Shown here piece by piece: positions 11,785-22,034 of a stretch of DNA of 32,000 nt. The position numbers and the translations under genes were made by a program. Source of the stretch: an uncultured Clostridia bacterium. GTDB lineage: Bacteria > Bacillota > Clostridia > Christensenellales > JAWKQI01. The DNA lies in contig CAYVRJ010000001.1 in the NCBI GenBank assembly GCA_964453645.1, positions 106,301 through 138,300 on the forward strand, read 5' to 3'. The notes beneath the pieces were generated by a model. That model searched no databases, was not told where the DNA came from, and saw nothing but the letters and a program-made list of their open reading frames with translations. Within the stretch, counting starts at the first letter, position 1, and each line of letters starts with the position of its first letter.

Positions 11785-11813
11785 TTGATAATTCGACAGT
11801 TCAACAGTATAAT
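11785..11813 (+). promoter_or_regulatory. Near-consensus sigma-A-type promoter for the radical SAM / GDP-sugar operon
   Basis: TTGATA (11785-11790), 17-nt spacer, TATAAT (11808-11813). About 37 nt upstream of ATG 11850. Confidence 0.65.
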
Positions 11814-11849
11814 ACAGGAATGGTTTATTAAAACAGAAGGGTTTCTGTG

Positions 11850-13757
11850 ATGAAAAATGTGTATTTAGCCCAGCCCAATTATCTCTATGGCAACAACGCT
11901 TACTTACCCTATTCGGCAGGAGCTATTGCTGCCTATGCCTTTGACGATCCCCAAGTGGCAGCGCACTATGCCTTGCCCCCCATTCTTTTTTTGCGCAGAG
12001 ATATTGCAAAGGTTGTGGAAGAACTGGACAACCCATGTGTGTTTGGGTTTTCAAATTATGTCTGGAATTTCGAGTACAACTTGTTGCTTGCAAGGGCTGT
12101 GAAAGCTGCTTATCCCGATTGTCTCATCCTCTTTGGAGGGCATCACATTCAAACCAATTCGGTGGAACTATTAAAAGACCACCGTTTTATCGATATACTC
12201 ATCTACGACGAGGGAGAAAAACCCTTTAGAGACATACTCAAGGCACTCCTAAACGGACAAGGGTTTGAAGACATTACAAACATCGCATACCGCAAAGACG
12301 GGTTGATTGTTGCAAACCAACTGGAGCGCTGGGAGGATACGGACTATCCCTCCCCCTACCTCACCGGGGTTTTTGACAACATCATCAGCGATACAAACGT
12401 TCACTTCACGGCAACTTTAGAGACCAACCGGGGGTGCCCGTTCTCCTGTGCCTACTGCGATTGGGGCATTTATAAATCCAAACTCAGAGCCTTTCCCATG
12501 GAGCGGATTGCAGAGGAAATCCAGTGGTTTTCAAAGAACCGAATCGAACTGGTCATGGGTGCGGATTCCAACTTCGGCATTTTGGAGAGAGATGTAGACA
12601 TTGCCAAAATGTTGATTAAAGCCAAGAAAGAGACGGGGTATCCCCAAAAGTTTCGGGTGTCCTACACCAAAAACAGCAACAAAACGGTATATGCCATCAA
12701 TGAGGCCTTAAACAACTCAGGTATGAGCAAGGGAGCAACGCTGTCCTTCCAAAGCTTAAGTGAAAGGGTGCTTCAAAATATCAACCGTAAGAACATGGAT
12801 ATGGGTATGTTTTCAGAGCTGCTCAAGCTCTACAATGCAAACAATATTCCCACCTACTCGGAAATTATCATGGGATTGCCGGGGGAGACCTATGCATCTT
12901 TTGTGCAGGGCATTGATACCCTGTTGGAAAATGGCCAGCACAACTCCATTAATATTTATAACTGTGAACTGCTGCCCAATTCCCTCATGGCCTCAAAGGA
13001 ATATATGCAAACCCATGCGATACAAACCATAAGAACGCCCCTAAACCAATACCACTGCGAACCCCAATCGGGGGATATCACCGAGTATTCCAACGTGGTG
13101 GTGAGCAACAGCACGATGACCATGGACGATTGGGTATTGTGTAACGTCTTTTCTGTGGTGGTCCAGTGTTTCCACTGTTTGGGGCTGTTGCAGTACATCG
13201 CAGTATTTGCCCGGCACAGGTACGGCGTACCCTACCACAAGTTTTACAGCCAGTTGCTCTCCTTTTTACCCGGATGCACAGGCATTGGTCTTATTTTCAA
13301 TAAAATTGTGAACCAAATAAAGGGCATCTCCTCGGGAAGCACTTGGGAGTATACAAATCCAAAGTTTGGTAACATCACTTGGCCCTTGGACGAGGGTGCT
13401 TTTTTGGAGTGTATGTGTCTCATGGACAGTTTTTATGAGGAACTCACCCCCTTCTTTGAGACGATGATACCCAATCGTGAGGAATTGCAGGAACTGATTC
13501 GCTATCAAAAGGCCTTGGTTAAGAAACCCTTTGATCGGGACTTCCGCTTGACGTGTGTTTACGACTTTAAGGATTATTTCGAAAAGGTGTATCTGGGGTC
13601 TGAAGTTGAACTTCAAAAAAAGTTGTGCACTTATGAAGTTTGTGTGGGAAAGACATACCACTCCTTTGCGTTATACGCAGTGGAAGTGGTGTGGTACGGC
13701 CGCAAGGGTGGAACGAATATATATCAAACAAATTATTTGCATGAAGGCCTTGCGTAA
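11850..13757 (+). CDS. B12-binding-domain radical SAM protein (class B-like), substrate unknown
   Basis: CPFSCAYC = CxxxCxxC at nt 12435-12458. The N-terminal ~170 aa have the flavodoxin-like pattern of cobalamin-binding rSAM enzymes (VFGFSNYVWNF, LILFGGHH). Followed by a long C-terminal region of about 400 aa. SD agaaggg. Confidence 0.8.
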   Translation: MKNVYLAQPNYLYGNNAYLPYSAGAIAAYAFDDPQVAAHYALPPILFLRRDIAKVVEELDNPCVFGFSNYVWNFEYNLLLARAVKAAYPDCLILFGGHHIQTNSVELLKDHRFIDILIYDEGEKPFRDILKALLNGQGFEDITNIAYRKDGLIVANQLERWEDTDYPSPYLTGVFDNIISDTNVHFTATLETNRGCPFSCAYCDWGIYKSKLRAFPMERIAEEIQWFSKNRIELVMGADSNFGILERDVDIAKMLIKAKKETGYPQKFRVSYTKNSNKTVYAINEALNNSGMSKGATLSFQSLSERVLQNINRKNMDMGMFSELLKLYNANNIPTYSEIIMGLPGETYASFVQGIDTLLENGQHNSINIYNCELLPNSLMASKEYMQTHAIQTIRTPLNQYHCEPQSGDITEYSNVVVSNSTMTMDDWVLCNVFSVVVQCFHCLGLLQYIAVFARHRYGVPYHKFYSQLLSFLPGCTGIGLIFNKIVNQIKGISSGSTWEYTNPKFGNITWPLDEGAFLECMCLMDSFYEELTPFFETMIPNREELQELIRYQKALVKKPFDRDFRLTCVYDFKDYFEKVYLGSEVELQKKLCTYEVCVGKTYHSFALYAVEVVWYGRKGGTNIYQTNYLHEGLA

Positions 13758-13766
13758 AGATTGAAA

Positions 13767-13810
13767 ACGATTTGTGCCGTATGTGAAACGGCGGAATGGA
13801 GTTTATTTTG
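13767..13810 (+). promoter_or_regulatory. Conserved leader element, copy A (upstream of gmd)
   Basis: 33/38 identical (37/44 through the start codon) to 18357-18400, in exactly the same register relative to the start codon. Contains hairpin GCCGT-N7-ACGGC and the SD GGAG. Confidence 0.7.
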
Positions 13811-14815
13811 AAAAAAGCACTGATTACAGGCATCACCGGGCAAGACGGTTCATATCTTGCCGAACTGTTGCTGAAAAAAAACTATGAGGTCCACGGCATT
13901 GTGAGGAGAGCCAGTGTGTTTAACACCGAGCGAATCGATCACATCTTAAAGGACATTCAGACGTACCACGGGGATCTCACCGATTCCTCCAACCTAAACC
14001 GCCTCATGGAAAAGATTGAGCCCGACGAAATTTATAACCTTGCGGCTCAGTCCCACGTGAAGGTGAGTTTTGAGGTGCCCGAGTACACCGCCGAGGTAGA
14101 CGCTGTGGGCACCCTAAAAATGCTGGACACATTGTCTGAACTGCGAACCCACACCCGGTTTTATCAAGCCTCCACCTCCGAATTGTTCGGTGGGTTTCCC
14201 GAAACGGCACCCCAGAGCGAAACAACCCCTTTCACTCCCCGCTCTCCCTATGCTGCCGCAAAACTCTATGCCTATTGGGTCACCGTGAATTTTCGCGAGG
14301 CCTATAATCTCTATGCCTGCAACGGCATATTGTTTAACCACGAATCTCCCCGCAGAGGCAAGACGTTTGTGACAAAAAAGATCACCATGGCGGTGGCCGA
14401 CATCGTTAGGGGCAAGCAGGAAAAGCTCACCCTGGGCAACATGGATGCAAAGCGGGACTGGGGTTATGCCAAGGACTACGTATACGCCATGTGGCTCATG
14501 TTACAACAGGAAAAACCCGACGACTACGTGATTGCAACGGGGGAAACCCACTCTGTGCGAGAGTTTGTGGAAGCTGCCTTTCGTTATGTGGACATCACCA
14601 TTGAGTGGCAGGGCAGCGGTGTGCATGAAGTGGGCAGAGATGCTAAGACGGGAAAGATTTTAGTGGACATAAACCCAAAATATTTTCGGCCAACCGAGGT
14701 GGACTGCCTGCTGGGCGATGCCACAAAAGCAAAGGAACAGTTGGGTTTTGTGCCCAAAACCTCCTTTGAAGAACTGGTGCACATCATGATGGAGTACGAC
14801 CTTCATGAGAGATGA
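13808..14815 (+). CDS. gmd: GDP-mannose 4,6-dehydratase
   Basis: [43 protein letters not shown] and [13 protein letters not shown] are canonical Gmd motifs. TTG 13808 gives the usual MKKALITG N-terminus, with GGAG 6 nt upstream. In-frame ATG 13796 is the alternative. Confidence 0.93.
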
Positions 14816-15740
14816 AAAAATTTATTTGGCGGGGCACACCGGCTTGGTGGGAAGCGCCATATTTAAGGCCCTTAAGGACAGGGGATATACAAATATTCTC
14901 ACCGCTTCCCACAGGGAGCTGGATTTAACCAGGCAGGCGGACACAGAGGCTTTTTTCGAGCGGGAAAAGCCAACATACGTCATATTAGCTGCTGCAAAGG
15001 TGGGGGGCATTGGGGCGAATATGCAGAGTATGGCCGACTTTGGTTATATCAACGCCATGATCGGGGCAAACGTCATACACAGCGCCTACGCATACGGAGT
15101 AAAAAAACTCTTGTATTTGGGCAGTTCGTGTATATATCCAAGGCAGTGCCCCCAGCCCATGCGGGAGGACTGCCTCCTAACGGGTATTCCCGAACCCACC
15201 AACGAAGCCTATGCCCTCTCCAAAATATTGGGGCTTAAGCTTTGCGAGTACTACAACACCCAGTACAACTGCAACTTTATCAGTGCCATGCCCTGCAACA
15301 TATACGGTGAGGGGGACAATTTCGACGAAAAGACGTCCCACGTCATCCCTGCCCTCATGCAAAAGATGCACAACGCCCATGTTCGGGGGGAGGATAGCGT
15401 TCTCATTTGGGGCACGGGCAGAGCTAGACGGGAGTTTTTACACGTCTTTGACTTGGCTTTGGCCTGTATCTTTCTGCTGGAAAACTACGATGACAAACAG
15501 TTTGTCAACGTGGGTGCTGGGCATGACGTGACCATTGCCCAGTTGGCAGATATGATGCGCCAGGTGGTGGGCTTTCGGGGGGAAATCGTCTTCGATACCT
15601 CCAAACCCGACGGCATGATGAAAAAGTGTGTGGATACGTCTAAAATCAATGGCCTGGGGTGGAAGAGTGAGATCGATCTTATGAATGGCCTTAAGCAGAC
15701 GTACGCTTGGTTTTTAGAAAATATTGTGAGGTATACATGA
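14805..15740 (+). CDS. fcl: GDP-L-fucose synthase family epimerase/reductase (Fcl, or its paralog GDP-L-colitose synthase ColC)
   Basis: About 45% identity by eye to E. coli Fcl: [43 protein letters not shown]. Overlaps gmd by 11 nt and colD by ATGA. Confidence 0.88.
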
Positions 15741-16888
15741 AAAAATATCCGTTGGCGTCGGGGACGTGGGGACAAGAGGAACGGGAAGCAATCCTTCGGG
15801 TGATGGACAGGGACATGTTCACCATGGGTCAAGAAGTGTTAGAGTGCGAACAGGCCTTTGCTAAACAGTTTGGTGCAAACTATGCGGTCATGTGTAATTC
15901 GGGTTCGTCTGCAAATTTGTTGGCAGTGGGAGCTATGGTCTATTCGGGCAGATGGCAGCGGGGAGACGAAATCATCGTTCCCGCAATTGCATGGGCAACG
16001 ACGTACTATCCCCTCTATCAATACGGGCTGAAGCTTCGGTTTGTGGATATCGACAGGGAAACCCTGAACATCAGCATCCCCGCCTTAAAAGAGGCGATCA
16101 CCCCCAACACCAAGGGGCTGGTTGCAGTGAATCTCCTTGGCAACCCCAACGAGTTCAATGATATTGAACGTATTTGCAGGGATGGGGGGATCACCTACTT
16201 CGAGGACAACTGCGAGAGTATGGGTGCCAAATACAAGGGCAAATATGCGGGAACCTTTGGGCTTATGGGCACGTACAGCTCCTTTTTCTCCCACCACATC
16301 TCCACCATGGAGGGTGGGTTTATCACAACCGACGATGAACTACTCTACGACATGCTCAAGTGCCTGCGGGCACACGGCTGGACGAGGAATTTAAATAGTG
16401 ACAGCGTGTTGTTTGAGAAGGGGGATGAATTTTACGAACTGTTTCACTTTATCCTTCCGGGTTACAACTTTCGCCCCATGGAGATGCAAGGGGCCATCGG
16501 GAAAGAACAGCTCAAGCGTTTGGAAGGGTTTGTAACCCTGCGGCGGCAAAACGCACTGTATTTTAAAGAGAAGTTTAGGGACTTACCCCTCACCGTGCAA
16601 CAAGAGACGGGGGAAAGCTCCTATTTTGGACTGGCATTTCTTTTAAACAAACCCGGCAAACGCAATGCACTGGCAAAAAAGCTAATGGACAGCGGCATTG
16701 AGTGCAGGCCGGTGATGACGGGTAATTTCACCAAAAATCCCGTGATTCAATATATGGAGTTTAATATTTCGGGCACCCTGGACAATGCGGATTATGTCCA
16801 TGAAAACGGCATATTCCTTGGCAACCACAGCTACGACTTAAGGCAACACATCGACTATGCCTACGACGTAATTTGCGGAGAACTGTGA
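15737..16888 (+). CDS. colD: GDP-4-keto-6-deoxy-D-mannose 3-dehydratase (ColD-type, DegT/AAT-fold)
   Basis: Colinear with E. coli O55 ColD as I recall it (YPLAS-TW, MFTMG, FEDNCESMGA, RAHGWTRN, LPGYN-RP-EM, QQETGESS-FG, IECRP). The PLP-lysine position is His (SFFSHHISTMEGG, His187, nt 16295-16297). Confidence 0.82.
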   Translation: MKKYPLASGTWGQEEREAILRVMDRDMFTMGQEVLECEQAFAKQFGANYAVMCNSGSSANLLAVGAMVYSGRWQRGDEIIVPAIAWATTYYPLYQYGLKLRFVDIDRETLNISIPALKEAITPNTKGLVAVNLLGNPNEFNDIERICRDGGITYFEDNCESMGAKYKGKYAGTFGLMGTYSSFFSHHISTMEGGFITTDDELLYDMLKCLRAHGWTRNLNSDSVLFEKGDEFYELFHFILPGYNFRPMEMQGAIGKEQLKRLEGFVTLRRQNALYFKEKFRDLPLTVQQETGESSYFGLAFLLNKPGKRNALAKKLMDSGIECRPVMTGNFTKNPVIQYMEFNISGTLDNADYVHENGIFLGNHSYDLRQHIDYAYDVICGEL

Positions 16889-16891
16889 AGA

Positions 16892-18337
16892 ATGGATTAT
16901 AATATGAGCAGTTTTGTATTTGGCACCGGTGGGATCCGGGAAGTGATGGGGCAAGGCGAAGGGAAGATGAACGACGATGTGATTATTTTGGCATCTCTGG
17001 CGCTTGCCCGGTTTCTCTTTGAAAAGTTTGAGAACCCCAAAGTTTTGGTGGCCTACGACAGCAGAATCAATTCCAAGGAGTGGGCGAACCTCACGGCAAA
17101 GGTGTTGGTCTCCAAGGGGGTTGAGGCCTTTGTTTTTGATCGGCTGTGCCCCACCCCGGTGCTCAGCTTTGCTATTTTACATCTGAATTTATCGGCAGGG
17201 GTGGTGATCACCGCCAGCCACAACACAAAGGAATACAACGGTTATAAGGTGTACGGGCACACCGGGGTGCAGTGCGTGCCCCAAGAGACCAAACAAATAA
17301 CAAAACACGGCCAGCAGTGTAGCGTCTTTGATTATGTTGAGCCAGAGGCAGACATTCAAACGGTTGGGGAGGACGTGCTGCGTGCCTTTTATGATGCCGT
17401 GCTCTGTGAATCTGTCTTTGAAGAAACTGCAACTGCAAGTGAACTAAACGTTGTGTTCACCCCCCTCCACGGAACGGGTGGCCTGCCCGTTCTCACAGTG
17501 CTTAGAGAAGCGGGATTTCGTGATGTGTTGGTGGTGGAAGAACAGTTTGAACCCGATGGCAATTTCCCCACCGTGGATTCCCCCAACCCCGAGGAACCCT
17601 CCGCTCTAAAAATGGCCATTGACTTGGCGAATCAGACGGGTGCGGATATAGTCATTGGCACAGACCCGGATTGCGACAGGGTGGGGGTTGCGGTGCGCCA
17701 CATGGGTAAGTACGTGCAGCTCAGCGGCAACGAGGCAGGGGCACTGCTCACCGGGTATCTCCTTTTCAAAAAGAGCGGCAACACCTTGGTGAAAACAGTT
17801 GTGTCGGGAGAGCTGGGCGGGCAAATTGCCCGGCAAAACGGACTAAACGTAATCAATACTCCCACTGGGTTTAAATACATCGGCGAACAGATGGAAAGCT
17901 TAGGCGAAGACTTCTTTTTTGCCTACGAGGAGAGCTTTGGTTATTTGGGCGGGCGTTATGCCCGGGACAAATGCGGGGTGGGCGCATGTCTGCTCCTGTG
18001 CCAATGTGCGGCACACCATAAACAACGGGGAAAAACCTTAGTGGATGCCCTAAACGAACTCAAAGCAACCTATGGCCACTACCAAGACTTTGGCCAGAGT
18101 ATACGGCTTGACCCCGGTCAACAGGAGAAAGTGATTGAACGGTTAAAAAGCTTGGATGGAATTTTGGAGGTGGAGGAGGCAGGTAGTTTCTTAAAACTGC
18201 ACTTTCACAACGGATGGATTGCCGTTCGGCCTTCGGGTACCGAACCAAAACTCAAGCTGTATTACAGCGCCAAGGGAGAGAGCCATGAAGCGGCTCAAGT
18301 AGCACTGGATGAACTAAAGAAAAGAGTAGGGGCTTAA
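16892..18337 (+). CDS. manB: Phosphomannomutase/phosphoglucomutase (alpha-D-phosphohexomutase)
   Basis: Active-site loop VVITASHNTKEYNGYKVY (Ser at nt 17216-17218; the usual Pro after SHN is Thr). Metal loop GTDPDCDR, sugar loop AYEESFGY, phosphate loop RPSGTEPKLK. The symbol is assigned from operon context. Confidence 0.8.
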   Translation: MDYNMSSFVFGTGGIREVMGQGEGKMNDDVIILASLALARFLFEKFENPKVLVAYDSRINSKEWANLTAKVLVSKGVEAFVFDRLCPTPVLSFAILHLNLSAGVVITASHNTKEYNGYKVYGHTGVQCVPQETKQITKHGQQCSVFDYVEPEADIQTVGEDVLRAFYDAVLCESVFEETATASELNVVFTPLHGTGGLPVLTVLREAGFRDVLVVEEQFEPDGNFPTVDSPNPEEPSALKMAIDLANQTGADIVIGTDPDCDRVGVAVRHMGKYVQLSGNEAGALLTGYLLFKKSGNTLVKTVVSGELGGQIARQNGLNVINTPTGFKYIGEQMESLGEDFFFAYEESFGYLGGRYARDKCGVGACLLLCQCAAHHKQRGKTLVDALNELKATYGHYQDFGQSIRLDPGQQEKVIERLKSLDGILEVEEAGSFLKLHFHNGWIAVRPSGTEPKLKLYYSAKGESHEAAQVALDELKKRVGA

Positions 18338-18356: not shown

Positions 18357-18400
18357 ACGATTTGTGACGTAAGCCAGACGGCGGAATGGAGTTTTTTATG
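18357..18400 (+). promoter_or_regulatory. Conserved leader element, copy B (upstream of manC)
   Basis: Same element as 13767-13810, offset by exactly 4590 nt: ACGATTTGTGaCGTA-N6-ACGGCGGAATGGAGTTT, then 3 nt and the ATG. Confidence 0.7.
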
Positions 18401-19732
18401 AACATAGTATTATTATCGGGGGGGTCGGGCAAGCGGCTGTGGCCTTTGTCCAACGAAACTCGCTCCAAACAGTTTCTTAAATTATTGAGCACAGACAGTG
18501 GGGAAAAGCAGTCCATGATTCAACGGGTGTTTTCCCAGATCAAAGAGGCAGGCCTTGATAAAAGCCTCACGGTGACCACCAGCAGCACCCAGGAGAGTGC
18601 CATCGTTGGCCAAATCGGGGACAGTGCCAACATCGTCATCGAGCCGGAGAGGCGGGACACTTTTCCCGCAATCGCACTGGCGTGTTGTTATTTAAAGTTT
18701 AACAAATGCTTGTCCGACGACGAAGTGGTGATCGTTATGCCCGTGGATCCCTATGTGGACATCGATTATTTTCATAAGTTCCAAGAATTAAAGGACGGTG
18801 TAAACACCAATCAGTACGACATTGTGCTCATGGGTGTGACACCCACCTACCCTTCGGAGAAGTATGGATACATTCAGCCAAAGGCGGGGGGAAGTTTGCG
18901 GGAAGTGGATAGATTCAAAGAAAAACCCACCGTAGCCCAGGCCGAAGAGTTAATTGCTGGGGGTGCACTGTGGAACTGTGGGGTGTTTGCCTTTAAGCTT
19001 GGTTATATGATGAACGTCCTTGCAAAGTATATGGATGTCTCGTCCTATGAAGAGGTGTATGAAAACTATCACCTGCTCAACAAAAACAGTATGGACTACG
19101 AAGTGGTGGAAAAGGCGAAGCGGATTGGCCTCATAACCTACGACGGCAGATGGATGGACATGGGCACGTGGAACACCTTAGCCGAAGAGATGGGTGCAAA
19201 CACCATCGGCAGGGTCACTTTATCCCAAAACTCTAAGAACACCCACGTGATCAACGAGCTGAGCATTCCCGTGGTGGTCATCGGTGCTAAGGATATGATC
19301 GTTGCTGCAAACTACGACGGCATTCTGGTGAGCGACAAGGAGCAGAGTTCCTATTTGAAAGAGTATTTGAGCGATGTAAACAATCGCCCCATGTTTGAGG
19401 AGAGAGCGTGGGGCAGATATAAGGTGTTGGAGCTGTTTTCTTTGGGAAACGGCAACAAATCCTTAACAAAACATTTGTTTGTCAAACAGGGTAAGAAGCT
19501 GAGTTATCAAATGCACAGGCTGAGGCAAGAAATTTGGACGATTATTTCGGGCACAGGTATTTTCACCATGGACGGAATGAACAGTTCGGTGAAGGCGGGA
19601 GACGTGTTCACCATTGACATCGGCAAAAAACACACCATTCAAGCGCTCACAGACTTGGAATTGATCGAAGTGCAACTGGGTAAAGAGTTAGAGGAAAATG
19701 ATATCATTCGCTTTGAGGAGGAATCGATTTGA
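18398..19732 (+). CDS. manC: Mannose-1-phosphate guanylyltransferase with C-terminal cupin domain
   Basis: MNIVLLSGGSGKRLWPLS (GGxGxRLWPLS). C-terminal cupin (LSYQMHRLRQEIWTIISGTG). ATG 18398 has GGAG 6 nt upstream. In-frame ATG 18386 is the alternative. Confidence 0.9.
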   Translation: MNIVLLSGGSGKRLWPLSNETRSKQFLKLLSTDSGEKQSMIQRVFSQIKEAGLDKSLTVTTSSTQESAIVGQIGDSANIVIEPERRDTFPAIALACCYLKFNKCLSDDEVVIVMPVDPYVDIDYFHKFQELKDGVNTNQYDIVLMGVTPTYPSEKYGYIQPKAGGSLREVDRFKEKPTVAQAEELIAGGALWNCGVFAFKLGYMMNVLAKYMDVSSYEEVYENYHLLNKNSMDYEVVEKAKRIGLITYDGRWMDMGTWNTLAEEMGANTIGRVTLSQNSKNTHVINELSIPVVVIGAKDMIVAANYDGILVSDKEQSSYLKEYLSDVNNRPMFEERAWGRYKVLELFSLGNGNKSLTKHLFVKQGKKLSYQMHRLRQEIWTIISGTGIFTMDGMNSSVKAGDVFTIDIGKKHTIQALTDLELIEVQLGKELEENDIIRFEEESI

Positions 19733-20607
19733 AAGTAGTATTGATGGACGGCGGGCTGGGCAACCAAATGTTTCAATATATATTTGCACGGTTTGTGGAA
19801 CTGTATTCGGGCGAACCCGTTTTTATCGACGATGCATTCTTTTTCTACGCAGACTTACACAACGGGTATGAAGTGGAAAAGGTGTTTCCCAACGCAAAAC
19901 CAAGGCTGCTCAGCAAAGAGTTTAGCCCCGGAACGTGGGATCAAATTGTGCAGTATGTAAAGAACGAGGCAGCGTTTCCCGAATTTATGAACAACGGTGG
20001 CAACAATTTCTTTGTTGTTTTTGAAAGTGGCGACATTCGTTATACTGGTAATATGGTGAAAGTGCCAGCCAACCAGTTTACCCCCGATATCGCCATCACC
20101 CAGGGTAATGTCTATTACTTTGGCTATTGGATCAACAAGAGGTGGTTGTCAAGTATTGCAGATTCAATAATGAGGGAGTTGGAGTTTCCGCCCATCCCCG
20201 GTGCACACAACCAAGACTATACAAGGTTGATTGAGAAAACCAATTCCGTTGCAGTACACATCCGCAGGGGAGATTTTGTGGATATAAAGTGGACGTTAGA
20301 GGACTCCTTTTATTTTAACTCCATAAAGGAAATCGCCCATAGGGTGGACAATCCAACATTTTTCATCTTTTCGGACGATCTCAACTGGTGCAGGGAAAAC
20401 AGCGAAGGATTGGGTTTTGAATTTGCAAAGGGAAATCTGGTGTATGTGGAGGGTAACATGGACAAACAAAACAACTATGTGGACATGCAGCTCATGTCTA
20501 TGTGCAAGCACATGGTCATCGCCAACAGTTCCTTTAGTTATTTGGCAGCCCTGCTCAACAGAAATGAAAACAAACTCATTGCCAATCCCACAGCACGGGA
20601 GCTTTAA
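19729..20607 (+). CDS. Glycosyltransferase family 11 (alpha-1,2-fucosyltransferase-like; possible colitosyltransferase)
   Basis: GGLGNQMFQY, HIRRGDF, FIFSDD and ANSSFSYLAALL are the GT11 motifs. TTG start overlaps the manC stop (TTGA), with SD GAGGAGG 7 nt upstream. Confidence 0.88.
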   Translation: MKVVLMDGGLGNQMFQYIFARFVELYSGEPVFIDDAFFFYADLHNGYEVEKVFPNAKPRLLSKEFSPGTWDQIVQYVKNEAAFPEFMNNGGNNFFVVFESGDIRYTGNMVKVPANQFTPDIAITQGNVYYFGYWINKRWLSSIADSIMRELEFPPIPGAHNQDYTRLIEKTNSVAVHIRRGDFVDIKWTLEDSFYFNSIKEIAHRVDNPTFFIFSDDLNWCRENSEGLGFEFAKGNLVYVEGNMDKQNNYVDMQLMSMCKHMVIANSSFSYLAALLNRNENKLIANPTAREL

Positions 20608-20630: not shown

Positions 20631-21983
20631 ATGGAAAAGAAAAAGAGAAAAGGACTAATTTTGATCATACTGCTGGGCCTTGTTGTGGTGATTGCAGGGT
20701 ATTTTTTAATCAACAGCTACATCAAGAGCCTGCCGGTATTTCAGTATGTAAACGGAACAAATACACAAATTGAATATCCCGACGCAAACTTTGCTGTGAT
20801 CAGCGATCTGCACATGTACGACCCTTCCCTGGGCACCGAAGGTGAGGCCTTTGATGAAGTGATGAACAGTGACAGAAAATTGCTGCTCAACAGCGAAGAG
20901 CTGCTGGATCTGGCGGTTGAACGCATTTTGGAATCCAAGGTGGATTTTGTGCTCATCCCCGGGGATATCACCAAGGACGGCGAGGTGGTGAACCATCAAA
21001 TTGCCGCAAACAAGCTGCAAGTCTTGGAGGACAACGGCATTCAGGTCTATGTGGTGCCCGGCAACCACGACATCAACAACCCGGACAGCAAGTCCTTTGC
21101 GGGCAGTAGTGCAACAAACGTGCCCAGCATCACCCCCGAAGACTTTAAACGGGTGTACGGAGGGTTTGGCTACGACAGCGCACTGTTTAAAGACGAAAAC
21201 ACTTTGAGTTACGCAACAGAGCCAATAGAGGGGCTATACATCTTAGGTTTGGACGGTTGCCAATACAATGTGGAAGGCCAGCGGAACCACAGCATCACCG
21301 GGGCGAAATATAACCAATCCACCATCGACTGGATCACCCAAACCGTTGCATATGCCCAGCAAAACGGCAAGGCCGTCATCGTCCTCTCCCACCACGGCAT
21401 TGTGGAGCACTGGAAGGGGCAGAGTTCCCTTCACCCCGAATATTTAACTCACGACTACCGTTATGTGGGTGAATTGTTGGCATCCTACAACGTGCGGTTG
21501 GCTTTTACAGGCCATTACCACGCACAGGACATTGTGCGGGGGGATTTTAACCAAGGTTTTCTCTACGACATTGAAACGGGTTCCCTGGTGACAGCCCCGT
21601 GCCCCGTGCGGTACGTTTCCATTGAAAACGGTGCTGCCACTGTGCGGACGGAAACGCTGGTGGATCAGCTGCACCCAGGCACAGACTTTGAAAAAAATGC
21701 AACGGATTTTGTGAAAAAGACAGTGGTGTTGGAGGCGTTTGCCACCCTTAAGAAATACTTGGTGTCCGACGAAGATGCCAACTACATTGCAAATCTGGTG
21801 GGGGATGCCTTTGTTGCCCACTACAGCGGAAATGAAGATCCAAGCCAGCGCATTATGGTGGATCAAAGTAAACTAAACTTGTGGGGCCAAATAGTCTATG
21901 CAACCCAGGGTTATGCCTTGGATGGCCTGTGGAACGACTTGCCCCCGCAGGACAGGGAGGCAGTGCTGCCGCTCAATCAATAA
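20631..21983 (+). CDS. Membrane-anchored calcineurin-like metallophosphoesterase
   Basis: N-terminal TM helix (LILIILLGLVVVIAGYFLI), then SDLH, GDITKDG, GNHD, SHHG and GHYH metallophosphoesterase motifs. SD aaggag 6 nt upstream. Confidence 0.85.
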   Translation: MEKKKRKGLILIILLGLVVVIAGYFLINSYIKSLPVFQYVNGTNTQIEYPDANFAVISDLHMYDPSLGTEGEAFDEVMNSDRKLLLNSEELLDLAVERILESKVDFVLIPGDITKDGEVVNHQIAANKLQVLEDNGIQVYVVPGNHDINNPDSKSFAGSSATNVPSITPEDFKRVYGGFGYDSALFKDENTLSYATEPIEGLYILGLDGCQYNVEGQRNHSITGAKYNQSTIDWITQTVAYAQQNGKAVIVLSHHGIVEHWKGQSSLHPEYLTHDYRYVGELLASYNVRLAFTGHYHAQDIVRGDFNQGFLYDIETGSLVTAPCPVRYVSIENGAATVRTETLVDQLHPGTDFEKNATDFVKKTVVLEAFATLKKYLVSDEDANYIANLVGDAFVAHYSGNEDPSQRIMVDQSKLNLWGQIVYATQGYALDGLWNDLPPQDREAVLPLNQ

Positions 21984-21998
21984 AGGAATAAACATACA

Positions 21999-22034
21999 GT
22001 CGGCAGGTTTTTAGCCTTGCCGACTTATTTGTTT
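21999..22034 (+). terminator. Rho-independent terminator of the radical SAM / GDP-sugar operon
   Basis: GTCGGCAGG-N8-CTTGCCGAC (9 bp with one G.U pair) followed by TTATTTGTTT. Begins 16 nt after the stop at 21983. Confidence 0.75.

Follow-up and report, generated by a model that had tools for sequence, protein, structure and literature searches.

A ColD-type 3-dehydratase gene in an uncultured Clostridia bacterium and its predicted pathway to a 3,6-dideoxyhexose

Does a gene of the DegT family in an uncultured Clostridia bacterium encode a sugar aminotransferase or a ColD-type 3-dehydratase and, if the latter, on which sugar does its product act? The gene lies in a stretch of 32,000 nucleotides, here called the window (contig CAYVRJ010000001.1 of GenBank assembly GCA_964453645.1, positions 106,301–138,300 of the forward strand). 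By sequence, active site, predicted fold, phylogeny, and neighbourhood, it is a full-length, intact orthologue of ColD with predicted activity. Probably the protein functions as ColD, that is, as a GDP-4-keto-6-deoxy-D-mannose 3-dehydratase dependent on pyridoxamine and pyridoxal 5'-phosphate (PMP and PLP), within a pathway to GDP-L-colitose; activity, end sugar, and acceptor are here predictions.

The 3,6-dideoxyhexoses are strongly antigenic sugars, best known from the lipopolysaccharide (LPS) of Escherichia coli O55 and O111, Salmonella, Yersinia, and Vibrio cholerae O139, and ColD of Yersinia pseudotuberculosis has been characterised biochemically. The chemistry of ColD and its histidine-for-lysine signature are already textbook material (PMC8987622; bioRxiv 10.1101/2021.09.04.459008). 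What is reported here is the correct annotation of a further member of the ColD family, and nothing new on its chemistry; the locus is modestly unusual in its host lineage, in one substituted residue (Ala85), and in the architecture of its operon, which has a B12-binding radical S-adenosylmethionine (SAM) enzyme and a single GT11 glycosyltransferase and lacks wzx and wzy.

Identity of the window gene

15737–16888, + strand: colD (P0001), 383 amino acids, GDP-4-keto-6-deoxy-D-mannose 3-dehydratase orthologue by phmmer, Pfam, fold, and tree

The open reading frame at 15737–16888 has 383 codons and no internal stop. Its ATG at 15737 is preceded by GAGG and overlaps the upstream stop codon (ATGA), and the N-terminus of the protein, MKKYPLAS, aligns with MINYPLAS of E. 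coli ColD; as judged from these sequence features, this ATG is the correct start.

Against all sequences of the Protein Data Bank (PDB), phmmer placed ColD first (2gms; E 1e-140, 472 bits), and the best four matches are E. coli O55 ColD and mutants thereof. The window protein is 56% identical to native E. coli O55 ColD over its full length (387 columns). An earlier note, made from the letters of the window, had called the protein a ColD-type 3-dehydratase and cited five blocks held in common with E. coli ColD (YPLASxTW, MFTMG, EDNCESMGA, RAHGWTRN, and QQETGESS). All five are present and colinear with the native enzyme, and the call itself agrees with the PDB match, the Ser-His pair, the absent iron-sulfur (Fe-S) insert, the fold, the tree, and the gmd, Fcl, manB, and manC context described below. 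The assignment gives the gene a precise name and a predicted reaction, where its named relatives are mostly annotated just as "DegT/DnrJ/EryC1/StrS family aminotransferase."

These comparisons bear on two other identities, a GDP-sugar 4-aminotransferase resembling perosamine synthase and a CDP-sugar dehydrase of the E1/RfbH type, to which we give next to no credence. Such enzymes share their fold and Pfam family with the window protein (PF01041, DegT; 243 bits), and RfbH is its top NCBIfam match. However, E1 dehydrase (150 bits, ~1e-43) and perosamine synthase (122 bits, ~1e-34), which come after ColD in the PDB ranking, score 320–350 bits below it; the Schiff-base position lacks a lysine; and the window gene falls outside both groups in the tree. 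No NCBIfam model reaches its cut-off, RfbH (NF011936) included (226.9 bits against a cut-off of 423), so NCBIfam apparently has no ColD-specific model.

The E1 enzymes RfbH and AscC (CDP-6-deoxy-L-threo-D-glycero-4-hexulose 3-dehydrase; PDB 3bcx) resemble the window protein in fold, in having His for Lys, and in PMP-dependent C-3 deoxygenation. Unlike it, E1 carries a [2Fe-2S] cysteine motif and needs the reductase E3; the E1-type insert RDCxCPSGxDNLCG is absent from the window ColD, whose seven cysteines are scattered. An E1/RfbH identity was rejected for the score below cut-off (227 of 423 bits) and the missing Fe-S insert. GDP-perosamine synthase (PDB 3bn1, 3dr4) has the substrate GDP-4-keto-6-deoxymannose and the fold in common with ColD, but it forms a Schiff base through Lys186, transaminates, and is only 28% identical to the window protein. 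An aminotransferase identity was likewise rejected, as there is no Lys at the Schiff-base position.

Catalytic histidine

16289–16294, + strand: Ser185-His186 codons, equivalent to ColD Ser187-His188 by pairwise alignment, PDB mutants, and DegT column alignment
16292–16294, + strand: His186 codon, at the Schiff-base lysine position, presumed general acid/base
16295–16297, + strand: His187 codon, equivalent to ColD His189, not to the lysine
16205–16207, + strand: Asp157 codon (EDNCES block), equivalent to ColD Asp159, invariant in an alignment of 201 sequences

The signature motif SFFSHHISTMEGG reads S182-F-F-S-H-H-I-S-T-M-E-G-G194, exactly as quoted in the earlier note. The histidine-for-lysine substitution seen there stands; its assignment to His187 (16295–16297) does not, the correct residue being His186 (16292–16294). 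Three comparisons place the lysine position at His186 and not at His187. In pairwise alignment, F-Y-S187-H188-H189-I-A-T-M-E-G-G of native E. coli ColD lies against F-F-S185-H186-H187-I-S-T-M-E-G-G of the window protein. The changes in the PDB mutants 2r0t (H188K) and 3b8x (H188N) fall on the first His of the pair. Finally, five DegT proteins of related genomes that do have the lysine align without gaps in this stretch, and their Lys falls opposite His186. The slip of one codon arose because the motif had been anchored on "S-F-x3-K," and the S-F pair of ColD lies one position later than that of aminotransferases; the right register comes only from the "K-x4-GEGG" side of the motif. By its conservation, Asp157 is the aspartate that in fold-type I enzymes pairs with the cofactor's ring nitrogen; residue roles beyond those of His188 and Ser187 are likewise assigned from conservation.

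The earlier note had further asked whether a neighbouring lysine might enter the active site. By alignment, His186 fills the Schiff-base column and no Lys lies nearby. The suggestion that this one residue makes the difference between a fucose locus and a dideoxyhexose locus does not hold, as ColD is a separate enzyme family. Changing the His to Lys merely stalls ColD, whose conversion to an aminotransferase has been shown to involve a further residue, Ser187 (bioRxiv 10.1101/2021.09.04.459008). The structure of the H188K/S187N double mutant of ColD is PDB 3gr9.

Conservation of the ColD family

15989–15991, + strand: Ala85 (GCA) codon, at the ColD Ser87 column, which is Ser in 200 of 200 other orthologues

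In an alignment of 201 ColD orthologues (the window protein and 200 others), 98 columns are conserved to 95% or more; the window ColD keeps 94 of these. Kept positions (ColD numbering) include S55-G56-S57, W88, E158-D159-N160-C161-E162-S163, S183, S187-H188-H189, R219, N248, and R331. Practically every one of the ~200 orthologues has the S-H-H string. Three of the four departures are conservative changes (K265R, F304L, and I333V). The fourth is Ala85, which is taken up below.

Predicted structure and phylogeny

An AlphaFold (AF2) model of the window ColD built from 31 sequences has a mean pLDDT of 92.2, with a single low-confidence stretch, the loop of residues 187–191 beside the cofactor site. 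In a Foldseek search with this model, ColD structures ranked at the top (TM 0.95, root-mean-square deviation 2.0 to 3b8x), followed by E1 (TM 0.90) and perosamine synthase (TM 0.86–0.88, 28% identity by structural alignment).

Seven DegT proteins of related genomes served as the root for a tree of 94 ColD-like sequences, which was made by a quick search and carries support from the Shimodaira–Hasegawa-like approximate likelihood ratio test (SH-aLRT) only. The ColD group is set apart with a support of 99. The sister of the window ColD (support 100) is the ColD of an uncultured Clostridia metagenome-assembled genome (MAG), L001, with 64% identity. Both fall inside a subclade of 29 sequences (support 100) that includes the crystallised E. 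coli O55 ColD and also Campylobacterota sequences.

Operon and predicted pathway

11785–11813, + strand: promoter-like site TTGATA-17-TATAAT ahead of the unit, a consensus match only
11847–13757, + strand: B12-binding radical SAM enzyme (PF02310 and PF04055; KedN5-family subfamily match below cut-off), first gene of the unit
13796–14815, + strand: gmd, GDP-mannose 4,6-dehydratase (TIGR01472, 554 bits against a cut-off of 415; PF16363, 491 bits)
14805–15740, + strand: Fcl-family epimerase/reductase (P0002), presumed GDP-L-colitose synthase (NF047922, 443 bits, cut-off 500)
16892–18337, + strand: manB-like phosphomannomutase, with all four PGM_PMM domains
18386–19732, + strand: manC, mannose-1-phosphate guanylyltransferase with a C-terminal mannose-6-phosphate isomerase (PMI) domain (PF00483 and PF01050; TIGR01479, 235 bits, below cut-off)
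19729–20607, + strand: GT11 (P0003), candidate colitosyl/fucosyl transferase (PF01531; HIRRGD motif)
20631–21983: metallophosphoesterase, last gene of the unit
21998–22025, + strand: terminator-like hairpin after the metallophosphoesterase gene, a consensus match only

The genes from the B12 radical SAM enzyme through the metallophosphoesterase form a tightly packed run. Within it the Fcl-like gene overlaps both gmd and colD, the latter by 4 nucleotides (ATGA). The GT11 at 19729–20607 is the sole glycosyltransferase of the unit, and the colD locus of the window has no wzx, wzy, or priming transferase.

The most likely product of this set of enzymes is GDP-L-colitose. The isomerase domain of ManC, ManB, and the transferase domain of ManC would lead to GDP-mannose, which Gmd would convert to GDP-4-keto-6-deoxymannose, the substrate of ColD. 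As reviewed for ColD (PMC8987622), a ketimine would form between PMP and C-4 of the sugar; His186 would take the C-4' proton and the 3-hydroxyl would be expelled; hydrolysis of the enamine would then yield GDP-4-keto-3,6-dideoxymannose and ammonia, and L-glutamate would return PLP to PMP. The Fcl-family enzyme encoded by the overlapping gene would carry out C-5 epimerisation and C-4 reduction to GDP-L-colitose, and GT11 would pass the colitose to a non-LPS acceptor.

Comparison with the E. coli O55 locus

E. coli O55:H7 ColD (WbdK; PDB 2gms, 2r0t, 3b8x, 3gr9) is the closest characterised counterpart in the comparisons above, with 56% identity, the Ser-His-His string, the EDNCES block, no Fe-S motif, and a predicted fold at TM 0.95. 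Its locus resembles that of the window in the ATGA overlap of colC and colD, in the partners manC, manB, and GT11, and in the linkage to gmd. The GT11 of the window is 28% identical to that of the O55 locus, which we take to be WbgN, and 41% identical to that of L001. The two systems differ in the Ala85 that the window ColD has for the invariant Ser87, in the reductase, which lies outside the E. coli ColC subclade, and in the start of the window unit with a B12 radical SAM gene and its lack of wzx, wzy, and a priming transferase. The hosts differ as well, that of the window being a Spo0A-positive, LpxC-negative member of the Bacillota without an O-antigen context.

Points against a plain colitose pathway

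Several observations weigh against reading the locus as a working route to GDP-L-colitose. Ala85 is the sole strictly invariant position that the window ColD does not keep, and its column adjoins Trp88. Membership in the family does not by itself fix the sugar, since ColD-like enzymes of Campylobacter jejuni use GDP-heptose. The reductase is more like true Fcl (306–334 bits) than like E. coli ColC (218 bits), and with this closer likeness some GDP-fucose could be made too. Lastly, the B12 radical SAM enzyme may make a further change to the sugar.

Ala85 raises the question of whether the window colD is an inactive or impaired relic, with the invariant Ser87 lost to Ala. We judge this most improbable. 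It would accord with the serine found at that column in every other orthologue aligned, but the reading frame is open over its full length, 94 of the 98 conserved columns are intact, and the gene is translationally coupled inside an intact operon. Moreover, the E1-type dehydrases, which likewise have His for Lys, naturally carry Gly or Ala at the Ser87 column, and for this reason Ala85 is not taken as probably inactivating.

The choice of sugar was weighed against the C3-dehydratases of C. jejuni HS:5 and HS:11, which are 62–67% identical to ColD and act on GDP-heptose (PMC10440746). These belong to the same family and catalyse the same PLP- and glutamate-dependent C-3 deoxygenation of a GDP-4-keto-6-deoxy sugar. 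Were the window protein to act in their manner on GDP-6-deoxy-4-keto-heptose, the product would be a 3,6-dideoxyheptose. This is very unlikely, even though Campylobacterota sequences lie in the subclade of the window gene and one Campylobacteraceae MAG (L015) has a ColD gene in a heptose-type cluster. The C. jejuni systems have heptose activation genes and a separate epimerase and reductase, whereas in the window one bifunctional Fcl-type protein would cover the downstream step; manB and manC with its PMI domain are part of the operon, which has no HddA- or HddC-like genes. GmhA was not found in the host genome (92% complete), in which the best match has 27 bits against a cut-off of 209. The lack of GmhA and the presence of manB and manC in the operon led us to reject a heptose substrate and make GDP-4-keto-6-deoxymannose, a hexose, the most likely one.

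Reductase partner

The host genome has one Fcl-family gene. Its product scores 334 and 306 bits against true Fcl (306 for E. coli Fcl) and 218 bits against E. coli O55 ColC, to which it is 38% identical. A reductase tree (77 rows, careful build, unrooted, with narrow sampling of Fcl not linked to ColD) contains a split with 100/96 support that places the window reductase with 16 others, all 17 being ColD-linked. The 16, among them E. coli ColC, comprise those of L001, L003/L004, and L103 (one other Bacillota ColD locus) and a 12-member ColC clade; the 60 rows on the opposite side include 28 Bacillota Fcl without a nearby colD, as well as Fcl of E. coli K-12. This split favours a ColC role for the window reductase. 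The notion of a plain Fcl, drawn from the higher score against Fcl than against ColC, is weakened by the grouping with 16 ColD-linked reductases.

In a separate observation, 49 Fcl-like proteins from ColD loci comprised several Fcl-like groups besides a "ColC" clade with a long branch. The reductase partners of ColD are thus not one clade overall, and several Fcl-like groups are likewise ColD-linked.

B12 radical SAM gene

A homologue of the B12 radical SAM enzyme of the window (36% identity over 639 amino acids) is encoded in the Campylobacteraceae MAG mentioned above (L015:6781–12630), where its gene sits between colD and an Fcl-like gene. This cluster is of the heptose type, with SIS/GmhA-like, HddC-like, HAD, GHMP kinase, and split transketolase genes. 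L015 is thus a second, independent neighbourhood of ColD and a B12 radical SAM enzyme, a hint that such enzymes act on 3-deoxy-4-keto GDP-sugars. Among 80 other ColD loci, one has a B12 radical SAM enzyme of the window type. We considered whether radical SAM genes are a shared hallmark of Clostridia colitose loci and rejected this, the radical SAM enzyme of L001 being unrelated to that of the window.

Both partner enzymes bear on whether ColD might work and the end product still not be plain L-colitose, either through modification by the radical SAM enzyme (for example, C-methylation) or through GDP-L-fucose made alongside, with GT11 transferring a derivative or a mixture. We consider this unlikely. 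It draws on the position of the B12 radical SAM gene within the same promoter-to-terminator unit, on the homologue that lies, in an unrelated Campylobacteraceae cluster, with colD on one side and an Fcl-like gene on the other, and on a reductase whose sequence resembles that of true Fcl more than that of E. coli ColC. However, the radical SAM gene is rare among ColD loci and has no related counterpart in L001, a neighbourhood is no evidence for a substrate, and the reductase groups with those linked to ColD. GDP-L-colitose thus stays the preferred product.

Host and distribution

Two separate loci of the host genome score above the 200-bit cut-off for Spo0A (C14:5700–6449, 276 bits; C10:15764–16507, 220 bits), which suggests two Spo0A-like regulators. 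No LpxC was found in this genome (2.28 Mb, 92% complete). A penicillin-binding protein of the MecA_N type is encoded in the window. From these three features we read the host as a monoderm member of the Bacillota from an endospore-forming lineage, in which the sugar cannot be going onto LPS. The prediction is that this Clostridia host displays a 3,6-dideoxyhexose on some structure other than LPS.

A wider proposal, which we advance as doubtful but conceivable, concerns a colitose-type 3,6-dideoxyhexose produced by a monoderm Clostridia of an endospore lineage. The B12 radical SAM enzyme might C-methylate this sugar, and the lone GT11 would then link it to an acceptor other than LPS, for example a wall polymer, the S-layer, the spore, or a flagellar glycan. 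To our knowledge, and in the colitose papers surveyed, colitose has been described from Gram-negative LPS or capsules. If true, the proposal would place a colitose-type sugar outside these structures and would perhaps add a new branched dideoxy sugar.

ColD orthologues were called at E ≤ 1e-90; the genome sets are samples, so negative counts cover the genomes searched. Neither 40 relatives of the same order nor 398 further genomes of the class yielded an orthologue; 400 other genomes of the phylum yielded one. Fcl homologues were absent from 60 same-order genomes and present in 36 of 401 genomes of the phylum sample, with the host genome counted in. For the "plain fucose locus" of the earlier note, no ancestral counterpart thus appears among the same-order genomes searched for Fcl or the class genomes searched for ColD. 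Orthologues of ColD turned up in Pseudomonadota, Campylobacterota, Nitrospirota, Elusimicrobiota, and Thermotogae-type genera, among other groups, and a genome survey regards the colitose pathway as one that occurs in many phyla (PMC7725333).

The locus of L001 (L001:276–11128) begins with the unrelated radical SAM gene and continues with rmlA-rmlC-rmlB-rmlD-GT11-gmd-fcl-colD-manC-PMI. Identity to the window counterparts is 41–78% for its GT11, gmd, fcl, colD, and manC, while the flanking genes are just 34–45% identical to their best matches in the host genome, and its GC content is 34% versus 47–49% in the host. This comparison fits an old transfer of a module between distant Clostridia. Together with the failure to find ColD and Fcl in the relatives searched, it makes the gmd-reductase-colD module look horizontally acquired as a unit. 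There is no compositional sign of recent transfer in the operon, the GC content of which (0.487) equals that of its flanks in the window (0.485 and 0.493); hence the module would not have been acquired recently. A module of gmd, reductase, colD, manC, and GT11 would thus be one that moves between distant Clostridia.

E1-like paralogue

The host genome holds a second sugar dehydrase with His for Lys, of the E1/RfbH type (L131:8161–9468, − strand; contig C3, ~224160–225467). This paralogue has the motif SFYPAHNLTMGEGG and the Cys-rich insert RDCACPSGVDNLCGNRF. Its gene adjoins a UDP-glucose-dehydrogenase-like gene and a short-chain dehydrogenase/reductase gene, and opposite it lies a nonulosonic-acid cluster (NeuB, CBS-nucleotidyltransferase, DegT, formyltransferase, PIG-L, and 2-epimerase). 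The host genome may produce two kinds of 3-deoxygenated sugars.

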